A DNA stretch of 43,512 nt from a virus (taxonomy: Duplodnaviria > Heunggongvirae > Uroviricota > Caudoviricetes). The stretch lies in the IMG/VR virus record IMGVR_UViG_2563366800_000009, positions 1-43,512 of that record. One strand, 5' to 3'. The position numbers and the translations under genes were made by a program. The notes under the pieces were generated by a model, which was not told the DNA's origin, did no database searches, and was given only the letters and a program-made list of their open reading frames with translations. Shown here piece after piece: positions 1,009 to 43,512 of the stretch (position 1 is its first letter; each line of letters opens with the position of its first letter).

Positions 1009-1083
1009 GTCCTCTTAGTTAAATGGATATAACGAGCCCCTCCTAAGGGCTAATTGCAGGTTCGATTCCTGCAGGGGACACCA
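1009..1083 (+). tRNA. argW: tRNA-Arg (anticodon CCU); prophage integration site (attL side)
   Basis: 75-nt cloverleaf read by eye: acceptor GTCCTCT/AGGGGAC, anticodon loop CTCCTAA, T-arm GGTTCGATTCC, discriminator A plus CCA. Confidence 0.9.
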
Positions 1084-1199: not shown

Positions 1200-1244
1200 G
1201 GGTAAAAAGTGGATAAAATAATTTTACCCACCGGATTTTTACCC
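1200..1244 (+). promoter_or_regulatory. Repeat cluster directly upstream of intS: GGGTAAAAA (1200-1208) inverted relative to direct copies TTTTACCC (1222-1229) and TTTTTACCC (1236-1244); candidate recombination-protein binding sites or intS control region
   Basis: Repeats seen in sequence; last copy abuts the intS ATG. Confidence 0.4.
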
Positions 1245-2402
1245 ATGCTCACCGTTAAGCAGATTGAAGCAGCAAAGCCGAAAGAAAAACCATACCGCCT
1301 TCTCGATGGTAATGGCCTGTACCTTTATGTTCCTGTATCCGGGAAAAAGGTATGGCAGCTTCGCTACAAGATTGACGGTAAGGAGAAAATCCTGACCGTC
1401 GGAAAATATCCGCTTATGACTTTGCAGGAAGCAAGGGATAAGGCATGGACTGCGAGGAAAGACATCTCGGTTGGCATCGATCCGGTAAAGGCGAAAAAGG
1501 CTTCGTCTAACAACAATTCATTTAGTGCGATTTACAAGGAATGGTACGAGCACAAGAAGCAAGTCTGGTCAGTAGGCTATGCAACTGAACTTGCCAAAAT
1601 GTTTGATGACGACATTTTACCCATCATCGGCGGTCTTGAGATTCAGGATATTGAGCCGATGCAACTGCTGGAAGTAATCCGCAGATTTGAAGATCGCGGT
1701 GCAATGGAACGAGCCAATAAAGCCCGCAGAAGATGCGGCGAGGTTTTCCGTTACGCTATTGTCACCGGCAGGGCTAAATATAACCCGGCACCTGACCTTG
1801 CTGACGCCATGAAAGGATACCGCAAGAAGAACTTCCCGTTTCTTCCTGCCGACCAGATCCCGGCATTCAACAAAGCACTGGCAACATTTTCAGGAAGTAT
1901 CGTATCGCTCATTGCTACCAAAATTTTACGCTACACCGCCCTAAGAACGAAAGAGCTTCGTTCCATGCAATGGAAGAACGTCGATTTTGAAAACAGGATT
2001 ATCACCATCGACGCCAGTGTGATGAAGGGACGCAAAATTCATGTGGTCCCGATGTCAGACCAGGTGGTTGAACTTCTCACTACGCTAAGCTCCATCACTA
2101 AACCAGTATCAGAGTTTGTTTTTGCCGGGCGCAACGATAAGAAGAAGCCGATCTGCGAGAACGCGGTGCTGCTTGTGATCAAACAAATCGGCTATGAAGG
2201 TCTGGAAAGCGGTCACGGATTCAGGCATGAATTCAGCACGATTATGAACGAGCACGAATGGCCTGCTGACGCTATTGAAGTGCAACTGGCACATGCCAAC
2301 GGCGGATCTGTGCGTGGGATTTACAACCATGCTCAGTATCTCGATAAGCGCAGAGAAATGATGCAGTGGTGGGCGGATTATCTCGATGAGAGGGTGGCAT
2401 AG
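1245..2402 (+). CDS. intS: Tyrosine integrase IntS (P4-like family), 385 aa
   Basis: Protein begins MLTVKQIEAAKPKEKPYRLLDGNGLYLYVP, recognised as KplE1 IntS; ORF track extends it upstream to a GTG at 1209 but the ATG at 1245 gives the known 385-aa length; adjacent to tRNA. Confidence 0.9.
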   Translation: MLTVKQIEAAKPKEKPYRLLDGNGLYLYVPVSGKKVWQLRYKIDGKEKILTVGKYPLMTLQEARDKAWTARKDISVGIDPVKAKKASSNNNSFSAIYKEWYEHKKQVWSVGYATELAKMFDDDILPIIGGLEIQDIEPMQLLEVIRRFEDRGAMERANKARRRCGEVFRYAIVTGRAKYNPAPDLADAMKGYRKKNFPFLPADQIPAFNKALATFSGSIVSLIATKILRYTALRTKELRSMQWKNVDFENRIITIDASVMKGRKIHVVPMSDQVVELLTTLSSITKPVSEFVFAGRNDKKKPICENAVLLVIKQIGYEGLESGHGFRHEFSTIMNEHEWPADAIEVQLAHANGGSVRGIYNHAQYLDKRREMMQWWADYLDERVA

Positions 2403-2742: not shown

Positions 2743-4695
2743 CTAACGAAGCCATTGGCTTGGTTTTTGTTTCAGTATATGTATCGCCCCTTGACCGGAA
2801 GCTGCCTGTTGTGCAGTTGCTAGCGTCACTATGTAGGTATTCCCTACTGTTCTTGGTTGAGTAAGGTTAAACTGCAGCGGTGAAGTATCACAGGATATGT
2901 ATTCTATTCCTGAATCAGAAGTCACCTGAAATTCAGTATATAATACACTACCGGAAGAGATAGAAATGTGAATTGCTATCTCACCTCCAGTGTATACAAA
3001 AGGTATACTTGGCATATTTGAAAAATCCTTAAAGTTAAGCATTGACGATGAACTAATAACCTCTTTGCCTACGTCATTAGTAAGTTGAACCGGTTTAGTG
3101 TAATCATAAGCCAGTAGAACGTAATAGTTTACAAAATTTACAAAACTTGAAGACGCCTTTGAAGAGCTATGCCATGTTTTTTTATTGTCCACACGGTATA
3201 TGGATTGGATGTTTAGAAACTCACTTGCCGTTGCTCTTTGCAGTATACCAGTACCTATGCCAAAATGGATATTACCAACGTCAAACACGTGGTCCTCGAC
3301 ATTTCCTGTAGTTGATAATATCGCGATATCAGGCTCTGCACTATCTTCAAGCGCTTCACTGCATTTTTCAAAGTACATAGAACCAACAGACCAACTAACA
3401 GCGTTAACAGTAGCTAAACCAGCGCCTGCTGTGGTTTCAGCTATTAATGTTCCTATTCTTGATGCCAATCCTTGCCCGAGAGTGACACCGGCACCTATGA
3501 GCTGTGGGGTTAAAGATGATGAATACGGATCATACCCATAGGACAAAGATTTTGATGTGTTATACGCAGCGACGACACCAAATTCAACACCATTAACGTT
3601 TACGTCTCCGGTTTCACCGGAGAAACCATGTGCCAAAGAGACACCTCTTGCACAATCAATTCCCATATATTGATTTACTTTATGATACCAACTCCCAAGA
3701 AGTACAATTCCAACTTCTGTGGCATTATAAGCATATATAATGTCTGTGACAGATTCTGCAACTACACCAAAACCATAAAAACCGTAAGGCGCAACATTGT
3801 TAGCATCAATATTTAATGTACCAATGTGCCTAATTCCACGAACTTGTTGTTCAGGCAATGAAAGATCCGGGGATGTTCCTACTGGTTTTTTGCTGGCGCG
3901 AACTACAGCCTTTCCACCCCATGAATAGCCACTCATCGCTTTAATAGTTGCGCCGTTTGTTTCCATCACTAAATACGATGGGATAACAACTTCATCGCTA
4001 ACAAAATATGTACAACCAGGCGTTAACTCAATAAACCCTGTTTTAATTGCCATGTTAATTGCATTTAAACAATCACTTTCAGAATAAGGTTTGGCGCCGA
4101 AGTTCTCTGGGGTGTTTAAGTTAAACCCATTAAGTAGTCCAACGCATATCCAATTATCATCTGGATGGCTTCCAGCATCAACATCATAACCGCCTTCTAC
4201 TATATCTTTCCTGGCATAAAAATACATGTTTCCATCAGGATCGTTATCATAAAGAACAGCATAGCGCTCATCATCAATATGTCCACCTGATGAAAAACTA
4301 ATATCAGACTTAAAATAGAAGTTAAGTCTGAAATGATTTTTTGCCCATACAGAAAATTGATCAGGATCATACTTCAGCACATTCGGAAAATAGAACTGCT
4401 GCGCCCCATACGCATCATAAACAGCCATAGAATGGCCCTGTACAGTAACGAATTTGGCAATCTGTCCGTTATATACCGGATATCCAGCAGCGTTAATGAT
4501 GATTGGCTGCGAAACAGGAACGTGAGAGCCGTCTTCGTTCTCCACATAAACCTGAATCTGGTTTTCAGGATTTACCGGGTCAGTGTCAATTTTACCGATA
4601 TAAATTTTGCCATTGGCAACCGCTTTAAAAGAACGCGCCATAGTGAAGAGTTGCGAAGGCATTGATACGATCACATTGGCTGTAATGTCTGTCAT
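2743..4695 (-). CDS. Tailspike protein; P22-type N-terminal head-binding domain with divergent receptor-binding/enzymatic domain
   Basis: N-terminus [34 protein letters not shown]...[13 protein letters not shown] matches the conserved P22/Sf6/HK620 tailspike head-binding domain; the rest is distinct. Confidence 0.85.
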
Positions 4696-4751: not shown

Positions 4752-4777
4752 ATAAAAAAACCCAGCCGAAGCTGGGT
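4752..4777 (-). terminator. Rho-independent terminator between ant and tailspike gene
   Basis: Hairpin CCCAGC-TTCG-GCTGGG followed by a T-run on the minus strand. Confidence 0.55.
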
Positions 4778-4795
4778 TGTCGCGTTGGTTATCTG

Positions 4796-5674
4796 TCAGT
4801 AGTTATGTACTGAAGGAGGTAATTCTTTATTCTTAAGTCTCATCCATGCGGAAAGATTCGCTGGTCCGTCTGGCTCATTGATATCAACATCTCGTGTGTG
4901 ATTGATTAAAACGTCTCTCGCCATTCCGATAACATACGAGAATTCATGACCGTAGTCGTAGCATCTGCCGGAATAGTTCGATTGAACTTGTTTTAATGCC
5001 GGATACAGTTCGCGGAATAATGCCTGTGAACGGTTAGCATAATCCCATAGCCATACAAGGCTGTTTGCTTCTTTTGCAGAAAGCTCGTTTGCTTTCTTCT
5101 CTTGTTTGCCGATAAACTCGCCTTCAAGCACTACCCTGTGGATGTACTCTACGGCCAGCGGGATTTGTTCAATTGAAAGTTCATCAATGCTGTCAATACC
5201 AAAACGCTGATGAACCATATTGTATGCATCGTCATAGCGAAGTCCTTTCTTTCCTACCAGCATGTTTACTGCATCGCGTAGCGGCGTTCTTTCCTCAACA
5301 GTGGTTTTCTTGCCTTTCACATACTCGCCATGTTTGCGAATTGAAGGTAGAACTTCTGCTGTTACCCACTTGCGGAATTTGTGCGGGACCGAACCTTTAT
5401 TGACAGCATCGCGGCAGCGCAGAACCAATGTATACATACCTGATTCGCTAACAATGCTTAGATTCTGCTCACCACCAAGGGTGTAACTTAAAGTTACTCC
5501 CTTTTCATCGTCATCAAGTGCAGTAAGCGCCTTGCGTGAGTTAGTCAGGGTTAAAGCATCACAAACATCTTTTGCTACAAACCACGGCTCACCGCATTTG
5601 TTGATGACGCGGATTTCACTGTCGCCGAATTTGAAGATGGTGAAATCGTTTTGTGCCTTTGCTATACTTTTCAT
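4796..5674 (-). CDS. ant: Antirepressor Ant (BRO-N plus antirepressor C-terminal domain)
   Basis: Position downstream of arc as in P22 immI; ATG at 5674 has an AGGAAA RBS; ORF-track start at 5740 is a TTG. Confidence 0.7.
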
Positions 5675-5736
5675 GTCAATATTTCCTAATCCGATTTGTT
5701 GATACCGAAGCCCTGACTGTTCCCGCAGTTGGGGCT

Positions 5737-5910
5737 TCAACTTTTTGCTAGATTACCTTTAGAACTATCCCGCCTTAAACTATCCACTAACCGCATTACC
5801 ATCTCGGTATTTATTGAGCGACCATTTTCTTTCGCTGACTTCTCGATTGCTAACTTAACCTCTAATGGGATGCGCAAAGGGTACTTTGGTGCGTCTGACT
5901 TGACTATCAT
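5737..5910 (-). CDS. arc: Arc-like ribbon-helix-helix repressor
   Basis: [35 protein letters not shown] resembles P22 Arc; GGAGG RBS before the ATG at 5910. Confidence 0.7.
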
Positions 5911-6626: not shown

Positions 6627-6983
6627 GTGAATGGTCAAACAATCATCATAATATTACTGAGCTTAATAGTTGCTAAGTTATATCCCCAAATCGGTTATAT
6701 TTCCCTAGTTGTCTGTACCTTGGTGGTCTTGGTATACGGGATATATAAAGTTTTTTCTTGGCTATTGCGTTTTAATGCTGCAAGAAAAACTATTTGGATC
6801 ATATTATTAGCAGCTATTGCAGCAACACCAGTGGGAATAGGGTATATCATAGATATTTTTTACCCTTCAAAAACAAAGGCATGGGTCATCGTCATTTGCT
6901 TTTACATCGCAGGTGTTTTTTTATTTGCTTTTCATTGGTGCTTTGTAAAGATTAATGAATACATATCAAGGGAAAAAAACTAA
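6627..6983 (+). CDS. Small integral membrane protein (about 4 TM helices) at the P22 sieA position; candidate superinfection-exclusion protein
   Basis: GTG start with GGGAGG RBS; strongly hydrophobic; visibly AT-rich; between mnt and the end of the late operon. Confidence 0.6.
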   Translation: MNGQTIIIILLSLIVAKLYPQIGYISLVVCTLVVLVYGIYKVFSWLLRFNAARKTIWIILLAAIAATPVGIGYIIDIFYPSKTKAWVIVICFYIAGVFLFAFHWCFVKINEYISREKN

Positions 6984-24210: not shown

Positions 24211-24286
24211 TGGTGCTGGTTAACGGACTTGAACCGCTACCCATTCGCTTACAAGGCGACTGCTCTACCATTGGAGCTAAACCAGC
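24211..24286 (-). tRNA. Phage-encoded tRNA-Thr-like gene (anticodon UGU)
   Basis: Cloverleaf read by eye: acceptor GCTGGTT/AACCAGC, D-arm GCTC-CAATGGTA-GAGC, anticodon loop CTTGTAA, T-loop TTCAAGT, discriminator A, CCA; one anticodon-stem mismatch. Confidence 0.6.
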
Positions 24287-24291
24287 ATGTT

Positions 24292-24366
24292 TGGCGGGAC
24301 AGCGTGGACTCGAACCACGATAAGAAGGTTAACAGCCTTCCGTAATGACCTTTATACGACTGACCC
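24292..24366 (-). tRNA. Phage-encoded tRNA-Asn-like gene (anticodon GUU), possibly degenerate
   Basis: Anticodon arm GAAGG-CTGTTAA-CCTTC, T-arm CGTGG-TTCGAGT-CCACG, 3' GCCA; acceptor stem has a T-T mismatch and the D-stem is only 3 bp. Confidence 0.4.
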
Positions 24367-27678: not shown

Positions 27679-29217
27679 TTATTCAGTCGGCAGTGCTACG
27701 CGCCAGGGGAGCAGTTCGCCGACCCGGTTTATCGGCCAGTCGGCTATGACGTCAAGGACATAGCGGAGGTAGCTTTCTGGCTCCACTCCGTTCAGTTTGC
27801 ACGTCCCGATCAGGCTGTACAGCAGCGCTCCCCGCTCTCCTCCATGATCCGAACCGAAGAACAGGTAGTTTTTGCGGCCCAGACTGACCATCCGCAACGC
27901 ATTTTCAGCGATGTTATTGTCCGCCTCAGCCCAGCCATCATCTGCATAGTACGTCAGCGCCGGCCACTGGTTCAGGGCGTATGCGAACGCTTTCGCCAGT
28001 TCTGAGTGTCGCGACAGGGTTTTCATCTTTTCACGCAGCCAGCTTTCCAGGGATTTCAGCAGCGGTTTCGTTTTCAACTGACGTTCGGCAAGGCGCTGCT
28101 CCGCCGTCATTCCCCTTATCTCTGCCTCGATGGCGTACAGTTCGCCGATCCGTTTCAGCGCTTCCTCCGTCAGGGCTGACGGGGTGCGAACGTGCACATC
28201 GTGGATTTTACGGCGGGCGTGAGCCCAACAGGCGGCTTCCGTTATCCGGCCATCCCGGTACAGCTCGTTGAACCCGGCGTATGCATCCGCCTGCAGTACA
28301 CCACTGAACCCCGCAAGATGGGTCTGCGGATGGATGCCTTTTCTGTCCGGGCTGTAAGCGAACCACACCGCCGGCGCCAGCGTTGACCCGGCGTTACGGT
28401 CGTCACGAACGTAGGTCCATAACCGCCCGGTCTTCGTTTTCTTATTGCCTGGCAACAGCACCGGGACAGGCGTGTCATCAGCATGGAGCTTACCGTCAGT
28501 CAGCACATAGTCCTGAAGCGCTTCTTCCAGCGGTGACAGTAGCCGGCAGCATGCATCCACCCAGCCCGACAGCAGTGAACGACTCAGCTCCACGCCCTGG
28601 CGGCCGTACATTTCAGACTGGCGGTACAGCGGGGTGTGCTCTGCATACTTTGAGATCAGCACGCGGGCCAGCAGCCCCGGTCCTGCGATACCCCGCTCGA
28701 TGGGCCGTGAAGGCGCGGGGGCCTGCACGATGGCATCGCACTGAGTACAGGCATGCTTTTCACGTACAGTCCGGATAACCCGGAAGACGCTGCGCATCAA
28801 CTCCAGCTGTTCGGCGGCATCCTCACCCAGATAGCTCAGTGAGCCTCCACATTCCGGGCAGCATGACGCTGCCGGCAGCAGCCGTTTTTCATCGCGGGGG
28901 AGTGATTCGGGGAACGGTTTGCGGGTGCGGGTTTGACGCAGCGGGCGCTGCACGGCCGGGGCGTCAACCCGACCGGTAAGGGTATCACTTTCTTTCTGAA
29001 GTGCCTTCAGGTCAGCTTCCATCTGTGCGATACGACGGGAGACTTTTTCGGAGCGGCTGCCGAAGTTCATCCGGCGCAGCTTATCCAGCTGTGCCTGCAG
29101 ATGGTCTATTTCGCGTTCACGCTCGTTCAGCTTTTCCAGCAGGGCACGGTTCAGCGCCTCCTGTTCGGCAAGGAGACGTTTCAGTGCATTGATATCGTCA
29201 GGAAGTGAGCTGCTCAT
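27679..29217 (-). CDS. tnpC: IS66-family transposase TnpC (orf3)
   Basis: 512 aa with coiled-coil N-terminus, CPECG zinc motif and DDE-type core typical of IS66 transposases. Confidence 0.9.
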
Positions 29218-30078: not shown

Positions 30079-30330
30079 TTACATTTCATCAATGTCAACG
30101 TCATCAGGAAGATGGGAGCAATACGCCGCTATACCATGATGATTTATCTCATACCCTTTGAACGTTACCATCTGGCGCGTAATCTCAACTTCGTTCAGGA
30201 ATCCGTCATCGCATAACTGCCTGGCTATTTTCGATTTGGTCTGGATTATTGGTAGTGCCTGTTCTTTCAAAGCGCATGATATTTGTGCATCCCATGCCTT
30301 TTCGAGAATGGCTAATTGTTTTTTATTCAT
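30079..30330 (-). pseudogene. Small phage gene downstream of helicase whose last 6 codons are replaced by the IS66 end (C-terminally truncated)
   Basis: ORF runs into the IS right end and stops at TAA inside GTAAGCG; joining the flanks restores ...DIDEMEREMKQ-stop. Confidence 0.55.
30083..30090. repeat. Right copy of 8-bp target-site duplication ATTTCATC
   Basis: Identical to 27634-27641. Confidence 0.8.
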
Positions 30331-31766
30331 CAGAATCCTCCTTTCTTCTTGGACTGAGGTTCCTCGCGTTCACGGCGGCGCATTTCAGCAGACTGTTGGT
30401 CTGTGTCATAAATAGCGCCATTTGCCTGAATGCAATACACCGTGCCGGTATTGCCATGACGATTGAGACGAAGGATTAGTTCAGTTTCACCAGGTGGAAC
30501 ACTGTCATCAAAAGCGCCTTCACGATGGATCCCAACCCAATAATCGCAATCCTGTTCAATCTGCCCTGTATCTCGTGAGTCACTTGGTAATGGGCGTTTA
30601 TTGGTTCTGCTTTCCAGTGCGCGGTTAAGCTGCGTCAGAAGCACAACAACGCAATCAAGCTCTTTGGCAAGGTTCTTCAGTCCTTTGGTGATCATGCCGT
30701 AAGCAAGGTCGTTGCGATCGGCCTTCTCAGCGGTCATTAGTGTCAGGTAATCGACCAGAATCATGCCAACACATCCTTTTTCTCGCTTGATTCGACGGCT
30801 TTCGCTGACGATTTGAGCCAGAGATAATCCCGGCGTGTCGTCGATGTAAAGCAGGTCGATTTCACTCAAGCGATTGGCTGTTTCGATCGCCCTGTTGAAG
30901 TCACCATCGTAATCACCCTGATAGCCGTCATCGGCGTCATTTGTCGCCGGAAGGTAAAAAATATTCGGGTTAACACCTGACTTCTGCCCTACCAGTTTTT
31001 CCAGTATCTGGTCACCTGGCATTTCAAGGCTGAACATCAGAGCGGGCTTTTTCTCATGCACTGCGCAGTTGATTGCCATCTGGCTGTATAGCGTCGTTTT
31101 CCCCATCTTAGGGCGAGCGCCAATGACAAACAGAGAGCCTTTCACCAGACCTTTCGGTGACAGCATCCTGTCCAGCGATGGGATCCCTGTGCTCATTCCC
31201 CGTTGTTCGCCTGATGGATCAAATCGCTTCTCAAGGTCGCTAACCCAGTCTTCCATGACCTCACCAAATGAGCGAAGGCCGCGACGCGATCCGGTTTTTG
31301 CATGGTCTGTCAGTTGCGTGAAAATCGCCTGAATAGCTTCGTACTTCTGCGTTGCAGTCATTCCATTGCGGGAATAGAGCAATTCCGTCGCTTCAGTCAT
31401 GCGGTTGATGGCGTAGCGTTCCATTGCGGTTTCGCGAACCTGCATTGCATAAGCAACGATGTTTGCTGCGCTTGGCGTGTTCTTTGCGATCTCAGCGATA
31501 TAAGCAAAACCGCCAACAGACACCGTTAACGATTTACGCTCCAGTTCATCGAAAAGCGTCAGGCCATCTACTGGCTTTTGCTCACGGTGCATTCTGGTTA
31601 TTTCTTCGAAAAGGATTTTGTGTGGTCGGCTGTAAAATGAATCAGGCTTCAGCATCGCCAGAACTTTCTGGACGCGCTCACTGCTGTCATCATCCAGAAG
31701 CAATCCACCAATCACCGCCTGCTCTGCCTCGATGCTATGGGGCGGCGCATAAAAATTATCGGTCAT
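30330..31766 (-). CDS. Replicative DNA helicase, DnaB-like (P22 gene 12-like)
   Basis: Walker A GARPKMGKT and DnaB-family sequence; start at ATG 31766 with GAGGG RBS. Confidence 0.9.
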   Translation of the reverse strand: MTDNFYAPPHSIEAEQAVIGGLLLDDDSSERVQKVLAMLKPDSFYSRPHKILFEEITRMHREQKPVDGLTLFDELERKSLTVSVGGFAYIAEIAKNTPSAANIVAYAMQVRETAMERYAINRMTEATELLYSRNGMTATQKYEAIQAIFTQLTDHAKTGSRRGLRSFGEVMEDWVSDLEKRFDPSGEQRGMSTGIPSLDRMLSPKGLVKGSLFVIGARPKMGKTTLYSQMAINCAVHEKKPALMFSLEMPGDQILEKLVGQKSGVNPNIFYLPATNDADDGYQGDYDGDFNRAIETANRLSEIDLLYIDDTPGLSLAQIVSESRRIKREKGCVGMILVDYLTLMTAEKADRNDLAYGMITKGLKNLAKELDCVVVLLTQLNRALESRTNKRPLPSDSRDTGQIEQDCDYWVGIHREGAFDDSVPPGETELILRLNRHGNTGTVYCIQANGAIYDTDQQSAEMRRREREEPQSKKKGGF

Positions 31767-32583
31767 CGTGTTCACCCTCACGAACTTTCAGGTAGGTATT
31801 ATCGTTAAGCAGGAAATCAAATCCCTTTTTGTGCCAGACAGTTCCGCGTTGATGGTTTGGGCGCTCTTCGAACATCCATCGGCAATTTTCGCCTACGTAG
31901 CTCAAATAATTTCTCCAGTCCTGCATCGTGAACCCATGCCCGTCAAGCTGGCGGGTTATCACTCCGGCTTTGCGCCAGAACGTTCGGATCTGGTTTTTAC
32001 GCTTGTCATTCAGTGCGCGGATTCTTGGCGCTTCAGGAAGGATTTCGTGGTAAGCATCGACAACATCCTGACAGCTGACGGAAGGTTTTTTCTTGTCAGA
32101 CTTTTTGTCTGCTGTGGCACTCTCTAATACGTCAGTATTAGAGATATTATTTATATTATTGTTTATGGACAACTGTTGGACAACCGTTGGACAATCTCCG
32201 CTGAGAGCCGCACCATTACTGGTGTTTGCGTTGGACAACTGTTGGACAACCGTTGGACAATTTTTTGCCTGAAAATCGTCATATTTAACGATTGTAAACA
32301 GGCTAAATTTCTTCCCCATCGAGCAAATATTAAGCATACCTTTCGACTCAAAAGTCCGTAATAAGCTCCGAACTTTGTTGTCGGGGATGAATGTTTCTCT
32401 GACCAGCGACGGGCGTCCAGTTATCATCTGACCGCGCTCAACAGTTATCGGACCGATATCCGTATTGACGACAGTAGATTCGTGATTAGCCTTGAGGATT
32501 AAGTGAAGCCAAAGATGTACTGCCTGAGAGTCCTTATAGAGCCTGCTGTCCATAAACTGGCGGTGTATAGAGACATACCCCAT
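31756..32583 (-). CDS. Replication initiator, lambda O/P22 gene 18-like, containing the origin iterons
   Basis: Iteron array lies inside the ORF; AGGAGG RBS before ATG at 32583; directly upstream of the helicase gene. Confidence 0.7.
   Translation of the reverse strand: MGYVSIHRQFMDSRLYKDSQAVHLWLHLILKANHESTVVNTDIGPITVERGQMITGRPSLVRETFIPDNKVRSLLRTFESKGMLNICSMGKKFSLFTIVKYDDFQAKNCPTVVQQLSNANTSNGAALSGDCPTVVQQLSINNNINNISNTDVLESATADKKSDKKKPSVSCQDVVDAYHEILPEAPRIRALNDKRKNQIRTFWRKAGVITRQLDGHGFTMQDWRNYLSYVGENCRWMFEERPNHQRGTVWHKKGFDFLLNDNTYLKVREGEHDDR
32165..32263. repeat. Phage replication origin iterons: two clusters of three 11-bp repeats TTGGACAAC(T/C)G, followed by an AT-rich segment
   Basis: Six tandem or near-tandem copies seen at 32165-32197 and 32231-32263. 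Confidence 0.75.
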
Positions 32584-41821: not shown

Positions 41822-42096
41822 ATGTGAAAAATTATCTCAGCAATTTAGCCAGCATGCTTCAGGGGATTGCAGGTGTCATTTCAGACGGCGAGCGGGTGCA
41901 GAAAGAGTGCCCTGCGCACTTAAAGTCAGCACTACTCGAGGCTTCTCACGCGCTAGATGGTCAATCGGTCAGGGTCAATTATCCGCCTAATGGAAAGCCT
42001 GAAATTGTTAATGCCCGCGGACACCATCGACCGCTTACCTTCCGGGAACGAGTGGCAATCCGCTTACTTGGTGGCAGGACGGAGATTCGCCCATGA
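41818..42096 (+). CDS. Hypothetical 92-aa protein
   Basis: ORF, GTG start. Confidence 0.4.
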   Translation: MNVKNYLSNLASMLQGIAGVISDGERVQKECPAHLKSALLEASHALDGQSVRVNYPPNGKPEIVNARGHHRPLTFRERVAIRLLGGRTEIRP

Positions 42097-42899
42097 GCAC
42101 TATTACCAGAGAACTGGCAAAGCTGTTCAGAAAAATTACGAATTCTGAAATTGATGCGGAGGGTAACGCTCATGTTGTTTTATCTCCTGCTGATAGCCTC
42201 CTGATTAATAATGCGCGTATCGCGCTGGCATCGCTCGAAGCGGAGCCTGTGGCGTGGGCGCACAGATTAATCAACAAGCGTAACGGAGTCGTTCACCCTT
42301 GGGTTTACGGTAGCGCAGAGGCGTGTCCAAGCGAGGGGGATATCTTCAATATTGAGGTAATGCCGCTCTACACCGTCCCTCCAGCGCCGGTATCTGTGCC
42401 CGCTGCGATGGAAATTGATGATGACTTTGACAGCGCGTTTGAACACGGAAAAGCTGTCGGCTGGAACGCCTATCGCGCCGCCATGCTTCAGGCCGAACCT
42501 GTAAGTAATAGTGATGAGTTACCGCTGGACTATCTGCAAGGACACAAAGACGGCCTGGAGTGGGCTGCACAATTGGCAGAAGCCAATCATCCGCAAACAG
42601 GTGACTGGTTGTACGACGACCAAATCGATCTTGCCAGGGCGATTCGCAAAGGTCCGGATATGCCTACTGTTCAGGGTGGCAACTCTCCGGTGATTCCGGA
42701 TGGTTGGATTCCAGTAAGCGAGCGGATGCCAGGCTCACAAGAGTGGGTAATCGTGTTCGCTAAATGGGATAATCAGCAGGTCTTGTGCTGGGATGATGTG
42801 GCAAATCGCTGGACAGATTTTGAAGACCAATCCTACTACGCCTATATGTTCACCCACTGGATGCCGCTGCCAGAACCGCCGGAGCAGGATGGTGAATGA
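42093..42899 (+). CDS. DUF551-domain protein
   Basis: C-terminal WIPVSERMPG...THWMPLPEPP typical of DUF551. Confidence 0.55.
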   Translation: MSTITRELAKLFRKITNSEIDAEGNAHVVLSPADSLLINNARIALASLEAEPVAWAHRLINKRNGVVHPWVYGSAEACPSEGDIFNIEVMPLYTVPPAPVSVPAAMEIDDDFDSAFEHGKAVGWNAYRAAMLQAEPVSNSDELPLDYLQGHKDGLEWAAQLAEANHPQTGDWLYDDQIDLARAIRKGPDMPTVQGGNSPVIPDGWIPVSERMPGSQEWVIVFAKWDNQQVLCWDDVANRWTDFEDQSYYAYMFTHWMPLPEPPEQDGE

Positions 42900-43276: not shown

Positions 43277-43292
43277 TTGCAGGTTCGATTCC
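43277..43292 (+). other. 16-bp exact copy of the argW T-arm segment (TTGCAGGTTCGATTCC; compare 1054-1069); att-core-like element upstream of torI
   Basis: Exact 16-bp identity seen in sequence. Confidence 0.5.
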
Positions 43293-43311: not shown

Positions 43312-43512
43312 ATGCAACACGAACTACAGCCTGATTCACTGGTTGATTTGAAATTCATCATGGCCGATACTGGCTTCGGTAAAACCTTCATCTATGACCG
43401 GATTAAGTCCGGCGACCTGCCAAAAGCCAAAGTTATCCACGGGCGAGCAAGATGGTTATATCGTGACCATTGTGAATTCAAAAATAAGCTCTTAAGCCGC
43501 GCCAATGGGTAA
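43312..43512 (+). CDS. torI: Recombination directionality factor (excisionase) TorI
   Basis: MQHELQPDSLVDLKFIMADTGFGKTFIYDRIKSGDLPKAKVIHGRARWLYRDHCEFKNKLL, recognised as KplE1 TorI; the window ends at its stop codon. Confidence 0.85.
   Translation: MQHELQPDSLVDLKFIMADTGFGKTFIYDRIKSGDLPKAKVIHGRARWLYRDHCEFKNKLLSRANG

Follow-up and report, generated by a model that had tools for sequence, protein, structure and literature searches.

We analysed a 43,512-nucleotide (nt) stretch of DNA from a tailed virus (IMG/VR record IMGVR_UViG_2563366800_000009, positions 1 to 43,512; hereafter the window) and found that the gene at positions 2743-4695 is intact, encodes the tailspike of a P22-like E. coli prophage and is assembled from exchangeable modules. 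An initial annotation, made from the letters alone, had described a mosaic P22-type tailspike in which a head-binding domain is fused to an unrelated distal part. This description was borne out, since the anchor matches Pfam PF09008 and the distal domain has no sequence kinship to structurally or biochemically characterised tailspikes, but segment-wise comparison indicates that the mosaic consists of four modules rather than two. The receptor of the distal module is most likely the O21 O-antigen of E. coli. Taken jointly, the data are probably best explained if the protein is the single receptor-binding protein (RBP) of this Lederbergvirus-type prophage, and both binds the O21 polysaccharide and cleaves it as an endoglycosidase. 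The gene and its parts are as follows, where UP17 stands for the lytic phage vB_EcoM_UP17 and T43 for an E. coli strain whose prophage carries a related spike.

2743-4695, minus strand: tailspike gene, a single open reading frame (ORF) of 650 amino acids with an ATG start and an intact stop
4354-4695, minus strand: module 1, anchor, residues 1-114; P22-type head-binding (tail-attachment) domain, assigned by Pfam PF09008 and by identities, and common to P22-like tailspikes generally
4138-4353, minus strand: module 2, linker and small beta 'neck', residues 115 to about 186; common to P22-type spikes only
3064-4137, minus strand: module 3, predicted helical cap and right-handed parallel beta-helix, residues 187-544; found on all anchor types
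2743-3063, minus strand: module 4, predicted C-terminal beta-sandwich, residues 545-650 plus stop; of the UP17 type, not the T43 type
3604-3756, minus strand: codons of E314, D318, E361 and D364, candidate catalytic carboxylates chosen by conservation

The ATG of the tailspike gene is preceded at a distance of 9 nt by a GGAG ribosome-binding site. A database entry named 'phage head-binding domain-containing protein [Escherichia coli]' has exactly this 650-residue sequence, and a separate, independent sequencing run yielded an identical tailspike protein with other genes around it. The window is equivalent to scaffold KE137202.1 of assembly GCA_000408625.1. A chance ORF was considered and dismissed on the basis of domain scores and synteny. 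The gene had been called visibly AT-rich and indeed has a G+C fraction of 0.404 vs 0.478 for the whole window (40.4% vs 47.8%). By part, the G+C fraction is 0.436 in the head-binding segment and 0.397 over residues 115-650, with the minimum of the gene (0.359) at residues 115-242.

The anchor is unambiguous. Pfam Head_binding (PF09008) matches residues 1-113 with E=5.6e-67 and a bit score of 223.6 (cutoff 24). Residues 1-114 are 100% identical to the corresponding segment of vB_EcoP-611R6, 98% to that of CUS-3 and 92% (105/114) to that of Sf6 gp14, while the identity to P22 gp9 is 75% (85/113) and that to HK620 is 73% over residues 1-157. The N-terminus had been called near-identical to its P22, Sf6 and HK620 counterparts, which is apt for Sf6, and for CUS-3 as well, but too strong for P22 and HK620. 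Matches to PDB sequences (Sf6 7sg7, P22 2xc1/2vky and HK620-type constructs) end at residues 115-132, and in approximately 1150 of the 5426 complete E. coli genomes the match covers the gene from nt 1 to about nt 340 and nothing beyond. The claim of a complete divergence past the anchor is thus well founded, as similarity to solved tailspikes stops around residue 114 and the approximately 1150 genomes match nt 1-340 only.

The remaining boundaries were mapped by protein identity of individual segments and by DNA identity in a sliding 90-nt frame. The neck (residues 115-186) is 98-100% identical within the family of 650-residue head-binding proteins (P0003, P0005, T43), and residues 124-185 are only 21-32% identical to those of close relatives on other anchors (P0008-P0024). 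Over residues 115-190 there is also 76-78% DNA identity to a 739-residue P22-type spike of E. coli CUWW11 (L015, 3001-5220), which has an unrelated receptor-binding domain (RBD). Because the neck is common to the CUWW11 spike with its unrelated body, the junction between anchor and body cannot be the sole recombination point. In the comparison with UP17, identity climbs from about 60% to at least 94% near nt 680-720 of the gene, and DNA identity to the spikes of UP17 and of phage TSP7_1 is 92-100% over nt 721-1800. The DNA of the T43 spike, in turn, is 100% identical over nt 361-1350 and falls to 44-54% after nt ~1711 (window position ~2985, residue ~571); from there on, the spike of E. coli CE0021a likewise is only 44-54% identical. 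Past the same point UP17 stays at 92% and then declines to 73%. There is accordingly a sharp break around nt 1711, with two C-terminal types (2743-2985, residues ~571-650) on an otherwise near-identical beta-helix: one in the window spike, UP17 and siphovirus-type spikes, the other in T43, CE0021a and most of the 650-residue relatives. Since the match to T43 extends to nt ~1711 and is followed by a UP17-type end, the gene gives the impression of a T43-type spike whose C-terminus was replaced by one of the UP17 type, with a donor that, judging from these identities, looks like one not yet sampled. In the origin that we propose, a head-binding anchor and a neck of the P22 lineage would have been combined with the shared beta-helix, and a UP17-type beta-sandwich would then have replaced the T43 type.

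The distal domain had been described as unrecognised. This applies to the family databases, because beyond residue 253 we found no match to the tailspike in Pfam, NCBIfam or PDB sequences, but not to sequence collections at large, where the domain has many close relatives. The only Pfam signal other than the anchor was a sub-threshold pectate-lyase-like match at residues 198-302 (E=0.026). Residues past 253 were left uncovered by every PHROG family among the best 25 of the 27 matched, and zero NCBIfam families matched the tailspike. A profile search of PDB sequences with an alignment of homologues left the beta-helix unmatched, and hit only the N-terminal anchors of other members. We found no characterised tailspike to which the C-terminal domain is near-identical; its closest relative, the UP17 spike, is uncharacterised.

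Among phage genomes searched with tblastn, residues 124-650 were 84% identical to tail spikes of vB_EcoM_UP17 and of phage TSP7_1. In the pairwise alignment with UP17, residues 243-650 are ~97% identical vs only ~45% before residue 243. UP17 and TSP7_1 are Phapecoctavirus (Stephanstirmvirinae) myoviruses, each with several RBPs. The wider protein collection contained 650-residue head-binding proteins 90% identical to the window spike, as well as 661-residue spikes with the same module. The genes of the latter directly follow genes for tail tube, chaperone, tape measure and tip on 44-kb contigs, a gene content by which these contigs are siphovirus-type phages. In addition, 815-residue spikes carry the module in E. 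coli (77% identical) and Salmonella (69% identical; assemblies GCA_013559405.1 and GCA_032301745.1). These spikes begin with a stretch of 218-286 residues that matches, at 63-81%, the tailspike anchor of epsilon15/phiV10, and their genes adjoin holin and glycoside hydrolase family 19 (GH19) endolysin genes, as part of another prophage type. The module is thus present on at least four anchor types, namely head-binding, epsilon15-type, Phapecoctavirus and siphovirus-type, and its beta-helix is at least 97% identical to lytic Phapecoctavirus spikes, siphovirus-type spikes and an epsilon15-type prophage spike. Judged by this distribution, the same receptor-binding subtype crosses phage genera by horizontal transfer. 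Distant relatives (~40%) occur in T7-like phages. As a side observation, the tail fibre of the so-called Enterococcus phages EFA-1 and EFA-2 (MT350292.1, MT350293.1; 40-kb genomes) is ~40% identical to the module and almost equals that of Escherichia phage TM1, so that the Enterococcus host label looks doubtful.

In connection with the receptor, we examined the hosts of the module. Using blastn at both high and low stringency, the RBD was found in only 2 of the 5426 complete E. coli genomes, T43 (isolated from a human in China) and CE0021a (isolated from a bovine host in New Zealand). The O-antigen cluster of T43 (galF to gnd) is annotated with wzx and wzy of the O21 family, a name that rests on RefSeq annotation and on a record labelled O21:H9; NCBIfam gave no match for Wzx or Wzy. 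The O21 wzy gene is present in 35 of the 5426 genomes (0.65%), all with at least 99.6% identity, including T43, CE0021a and the record labelled O21:H9. Both complete-genome carriers of the module (2/2, a small sample) thus belong to one serogroup, O21, and the chance that two random genomes would both be O21 is ~4e-5. The anchor, the prophage type and the chromosomal site of the module all differ between the two carriers, and with vehicles and sites differing in this way common descent of the hosts does not explain the O21 match. CUWW11 served as a negative control: it shares the anchor and the neck, has another RBD, and is not among the O21 genomes. In prophages of the Lederbergvirus and Uetakevirus types with a single RBP, the RBP is known to track the O serogroup of the host (Pas et al., 2023; PMC10408124). 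The antigens O21 of E. coli and O38 of Salmonella are reported to be closely related (Li et al., 2011, by its title, as cited in PMC7685785), and we found a Salmonella Wzy homologue (P0045) with 65% identity to the O21 Wzy. This relatedness would account for the Salmonella orthologues, for which the Salmonella O38 antigen is, by extension from O21, the most likely receptor.

An alternative is that the distal domain recognises some other polysaccharide, such as a K capsule, a group 4 O-antigen capsule, colanic acid or enterobacterial common antigen, with the co-occurrence with O21 reflecting ancestry or chance. A P22-type anchor can bear a capsule-specific module, as in the endosialidase of CUS-3, PHROG and GenBank labels of spikes with related anchors include 'colanic acid degradation', RBP subtypes that extend across several serogroups have been described (Pas et al.; PMC10408124), and there are only two serotyped carriers. 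However, the 'colanic acid' labels belong to the N-terminal match only, and both carriers are O21 although this serogroup makes up 0.65% of the genomes. Shared clonal ancestry is unlikely for carriers that come from different hosts and countries and differ in prophage type and site. We consider recognition of another polysaccharide unlikely.

The structure of residues 110-650 was predicted as a monomer by AlphaFold2 from an alignment of 21 sequences, with a mean predicted local distance difference test score (pLDDT) of 83.1 and a predicted template modelling score of 0.70. Low pLDDT at residues 110-125, corresponding to a disordered linker, is followed by six short strands over residues 128-186, two short helices, and then a long series of short strands, mostly with pLDDT above 90, that reaches to about residue 526. 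A low-confidence linker (residues 527-542) leads to a C-terminal beta domain, which gave local Foldseek matches to beta-sandwich domains of ~100 residues. The nearest solved structures in Foldseek, the Klebsiella K2-2 tailspike protein (TSP; E=1e-8) and CBA120 TSP4 (E=1e-7), are right-handed parallel beta-helix proteins with a sequence identity of only 9-16%. The model thus predicts that residues 187-544 are a right-handed parallel beta-helix body; structure prediction, put forward as a check in the initial annotation, gave a standard tailspike fold with no close solved relative. Within this body, E314 and E361 are kept in 21/21 homologues with identities down to 26%, D318 in 20/21 and D364 in 19/21. 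Overall, D208, E235, E314 and E361 are invariant, D297, D318, D364 and D389 are near-invariant, and there was no match to a glycoside hydrolase family. On the basis of this conservation, the pairs E314/D318 and E361/D364 are candidates for the catalytic carboxylates.

Combining these observations, and by analogy with P22, Sf6 and HK620, we propose that homotrimers of the spike would dock on the tail hub via residues 1-114. The beta-helix body (residues ~190-545) would bind the O21 O-polysaccharide along its length and cleave it endolytically, acting as an endoglycosidase by means of conserved carboxylates, with E314/D318 and E361/D364 as candidates. In this way the virion would advance to the outer membrane, and the tail needle and the ejection proteins would take over there.

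A second alternative accepts O21 as the receptor and differs in the chemistry, the protein being a lyase, an esterase that removes acetyl groups, or an adhesin without catalytic activity. It draws on the finding that no glycoside hydrolase family was matched by sequence. Against it, several carboxylates are invariant down to 26% identity, which suggests catalysis over mere binding, and esterase tailspikes, to our knowledge, have their activity in SGNH-type domains and not in the beta-helix. Furthermore, within the P22 group those O-antigen tailspikes that have been characterised (P22, Sf6 and HK620) are endoglycosidases. A non-glycosidase activity thus also appears improbable to us, to much the same degree as a different receptor.

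Several points weigh against the proposed role as an O21-cleaving endoglycosidase. The association with O21 rests on two genomes, T43 and CE0021a. The association does not draw on the window's own strain (GCA_000408625.1), whose O-antigen cluster lies beyond the window, and the last ~80-100 residues of the window spike are ~50-60% identical to those of the T43 protein, which could alter binding. The neighbours in the fold comparison are hydrolases, lyases and epimerases alike, and with several enzyme classes among them the fold does not fix the chemistry. Being of a monomer, the AlphaFold2 model gives no answer on a groove lined by the conserved carboxylates. An IS66 insertion in the early region may put virion production by the prophage in doubt. 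In the literature search, no assay was reported for any member of the module, and no paper assigned the module a receptor, or any tailspike to E. coli O21; where 'O21' appeared alongside a tailspike, it always referred to Salmonella O21 and CBA120 TSP1. The paper that describes UP17 gives neither host serotypes nor receptor data, and UP17 has other RBPs; papers on TSPs of Ackermannviridae mention neither UP17 nor TSP7_1.

A bolder version of the proposal, to which we give slightly less than an even chance, is that the spike belongs to a founding, structurally unsolved family of E. coli O21/Salmonella O38 depolymerases with a catalytic arrangement of its own (E314/D318/E361/D364), in which an exchangeable C-terminal beta-sandwich tunes the receptor range or trimer maturation. 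Such tuning would explain the presence of two C-terminal types on the same beta-helix. Lastly, it is very improbable that the tailspike is a relic in a defective prophage that has lost its virion function, as the IS66-family transposase inside the early region might suggest, given the full-length ORF with intact start, ribosome-binding site and stop, the identical protein with other neighbouring genes in the independent sequencing run, the presence of the structural genes, attL and attR, and the at least 97% conservation of the module with spikes of lytic phages.

The gene order around the tailspike is P22-like, namely a gp16-type ejection protein, two Arc/Mnt-type regulators, Ant, tailspike, integrase, tRNA-Arg(CCT) and yfdC, with the tailspike closing the virion gene block after the immI region, and the prophage also encodes a tail needle knob and ejection proteins. 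The features that flank the gene and bound the prophage are as follows.

4796-5740, minus strand: antirepressor Ant (immI region), upstream neighbour; PHROG 245 (E=9e-114), Bro-N and P22_AR_C domains
4759-4778, minus strand: terminator-like hairpin, AACCCAGCTTCGGCTGGGTT followed by TTTTTTT, between ant and the tailspike gene; the counterpart in position of the P22 ant-gene 9 intergenic region
1209-2402, plus strand: tyrosine integrase (IntS-type), downstream neighbour; Pfam Phage_integrase and Arm-DNA-bind_3
1009-1083, plus strand: tRNA-Arg(CCT), found by ARAGORN, with the attL core at 1054-1069
43277-43292, plus strand: attR core repeat, the same 16 bp as at 1054-1069, TTGCAGGTTCGATTCC

The 16-bp direct repeat bounds a prophage of ~42.2 kb, all of which is contained in the window. 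The integration site is identified as argW by its synteny with the T43 locus, in which the equivalent of the integrase is annotated as prophage integrase IntS. The tailspike stop and the integrase gene are separated by 340 bp, so no seroconversion or O-antigen-modifying genes fit there. Just past attR, a 66-residue ORF (43312-43512, plus strand) has a weak, excisionase-like match to HTH_17 and resembles TorI of the KpLE1/CPS-53 element at the same site in K-12, which would point to argW having been occupied in tandem or successively. Close to attR there are also two adjacent Ead/Ea22-like genes (PF13935; 40608-41447 and 41444-41821, plus strand) and a DUF551 gene (42093-42899). The IS66-family transposase (27679-29217, minus strand) has four IS66 Pfam domains (E=1e-106) and adjoins a DnaB-type helicase gene (30330-31781), and the prophage carries its own tRNA-Thr(TGT) (24211-24286) and tRNA-Asn(GTT) (24292-24366), both on the minus strand. 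A 118-residue ORF (6627-6983, plus strand), located between the genes of the gp16-type protein and of the Arc/Mnt regulators, has a G+C fraction of ~0.36 and four hydrophobic segments, and neither Pfam nor PHROG gave a match. It occupies the place of sieA in P22 and is a candidate for a superinfection-exclusion or other moron gene.

It is well known that P22-like prophages exchange RBDs with lytic phages to which they are unrelated. The gene in the window is an uncharacterised instance of this modular exchange, with a testable predicted O21 specificity and an extra swap at the C-terminus. If the O21 assignment is true, the module and its at least 97% identical copies from lytic phages would be a reagent to detect, type or strip the O21 O-antigen, and the module could be grafted on other phage or tailocin scaffolds. 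The breakpoints of the four modules add one more worked example of tailspike recombination sites; the general understanding of tailspikes is unchanged, because modular RBD exchange is already well documented.

Compared with named systems, the spikes of Sf6 (gp14; 7sg7) and CUS-3 are like the window spike in their anchor, their position beside ant and int and the integration of the phage at a tRNA gene, but there is no detectable sequence similarity after residue ~115. The Sf6 tailspike is an endorhamnosidase for the O-antigen of S. flexneri and that of CUS-3 a K1 endosialidase. The spikes of UP17 (CAA7332709.1) and TSP7_1 (QPX71899.1) resemble the window spike in residues 243-650 and in the type of C-terminal domain, but differ from it in the N-terminal anchor (~170 residues) and in the neck; the phages are of a lytic 150-kb myovirus type with several other RBPs. 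The spike of the argW prophage of T43 (O21; WP_343365146.1) shares the integration site and the length and is 91% identical to the window spike, but its C-terminal ~80 residues (from residue ~571) are ~50% identical and there are scattered differences in the head-binding domain. The 815-residue Uetakevirus-type spikes, among them that of E. coli CE0021a (O21), have a beta-helix that is 86-100% identical to that of the window spike when they come from E. coli and 73-82% when they come from Salmonella, whereas their anchor is another domain of ~280 residues (63-80% to phiV10 and epsilon15) and they reside in another prophage type at another integration site. CBA120 TSP2 (5w6p, O157-specific), K2-2 TSP (8iq5) and HK620 (2vji) are 9-16% identical, with no active-site correspondence established. 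Two further cases involve other modules and other serogroups than the window spike and nevertheless parallel it: one RBP subtype, 4s/O22, is common to the Phapecoctavirus SKA64 and a Lederbergvirus prophage (PMC10408124, supplement), and the tailspike sharing of P22, Det7 and 9NA is a precedent for one receptor-binding module moving among podo-, myo- and siphoviruses whose anchors differ (PMC8432352).

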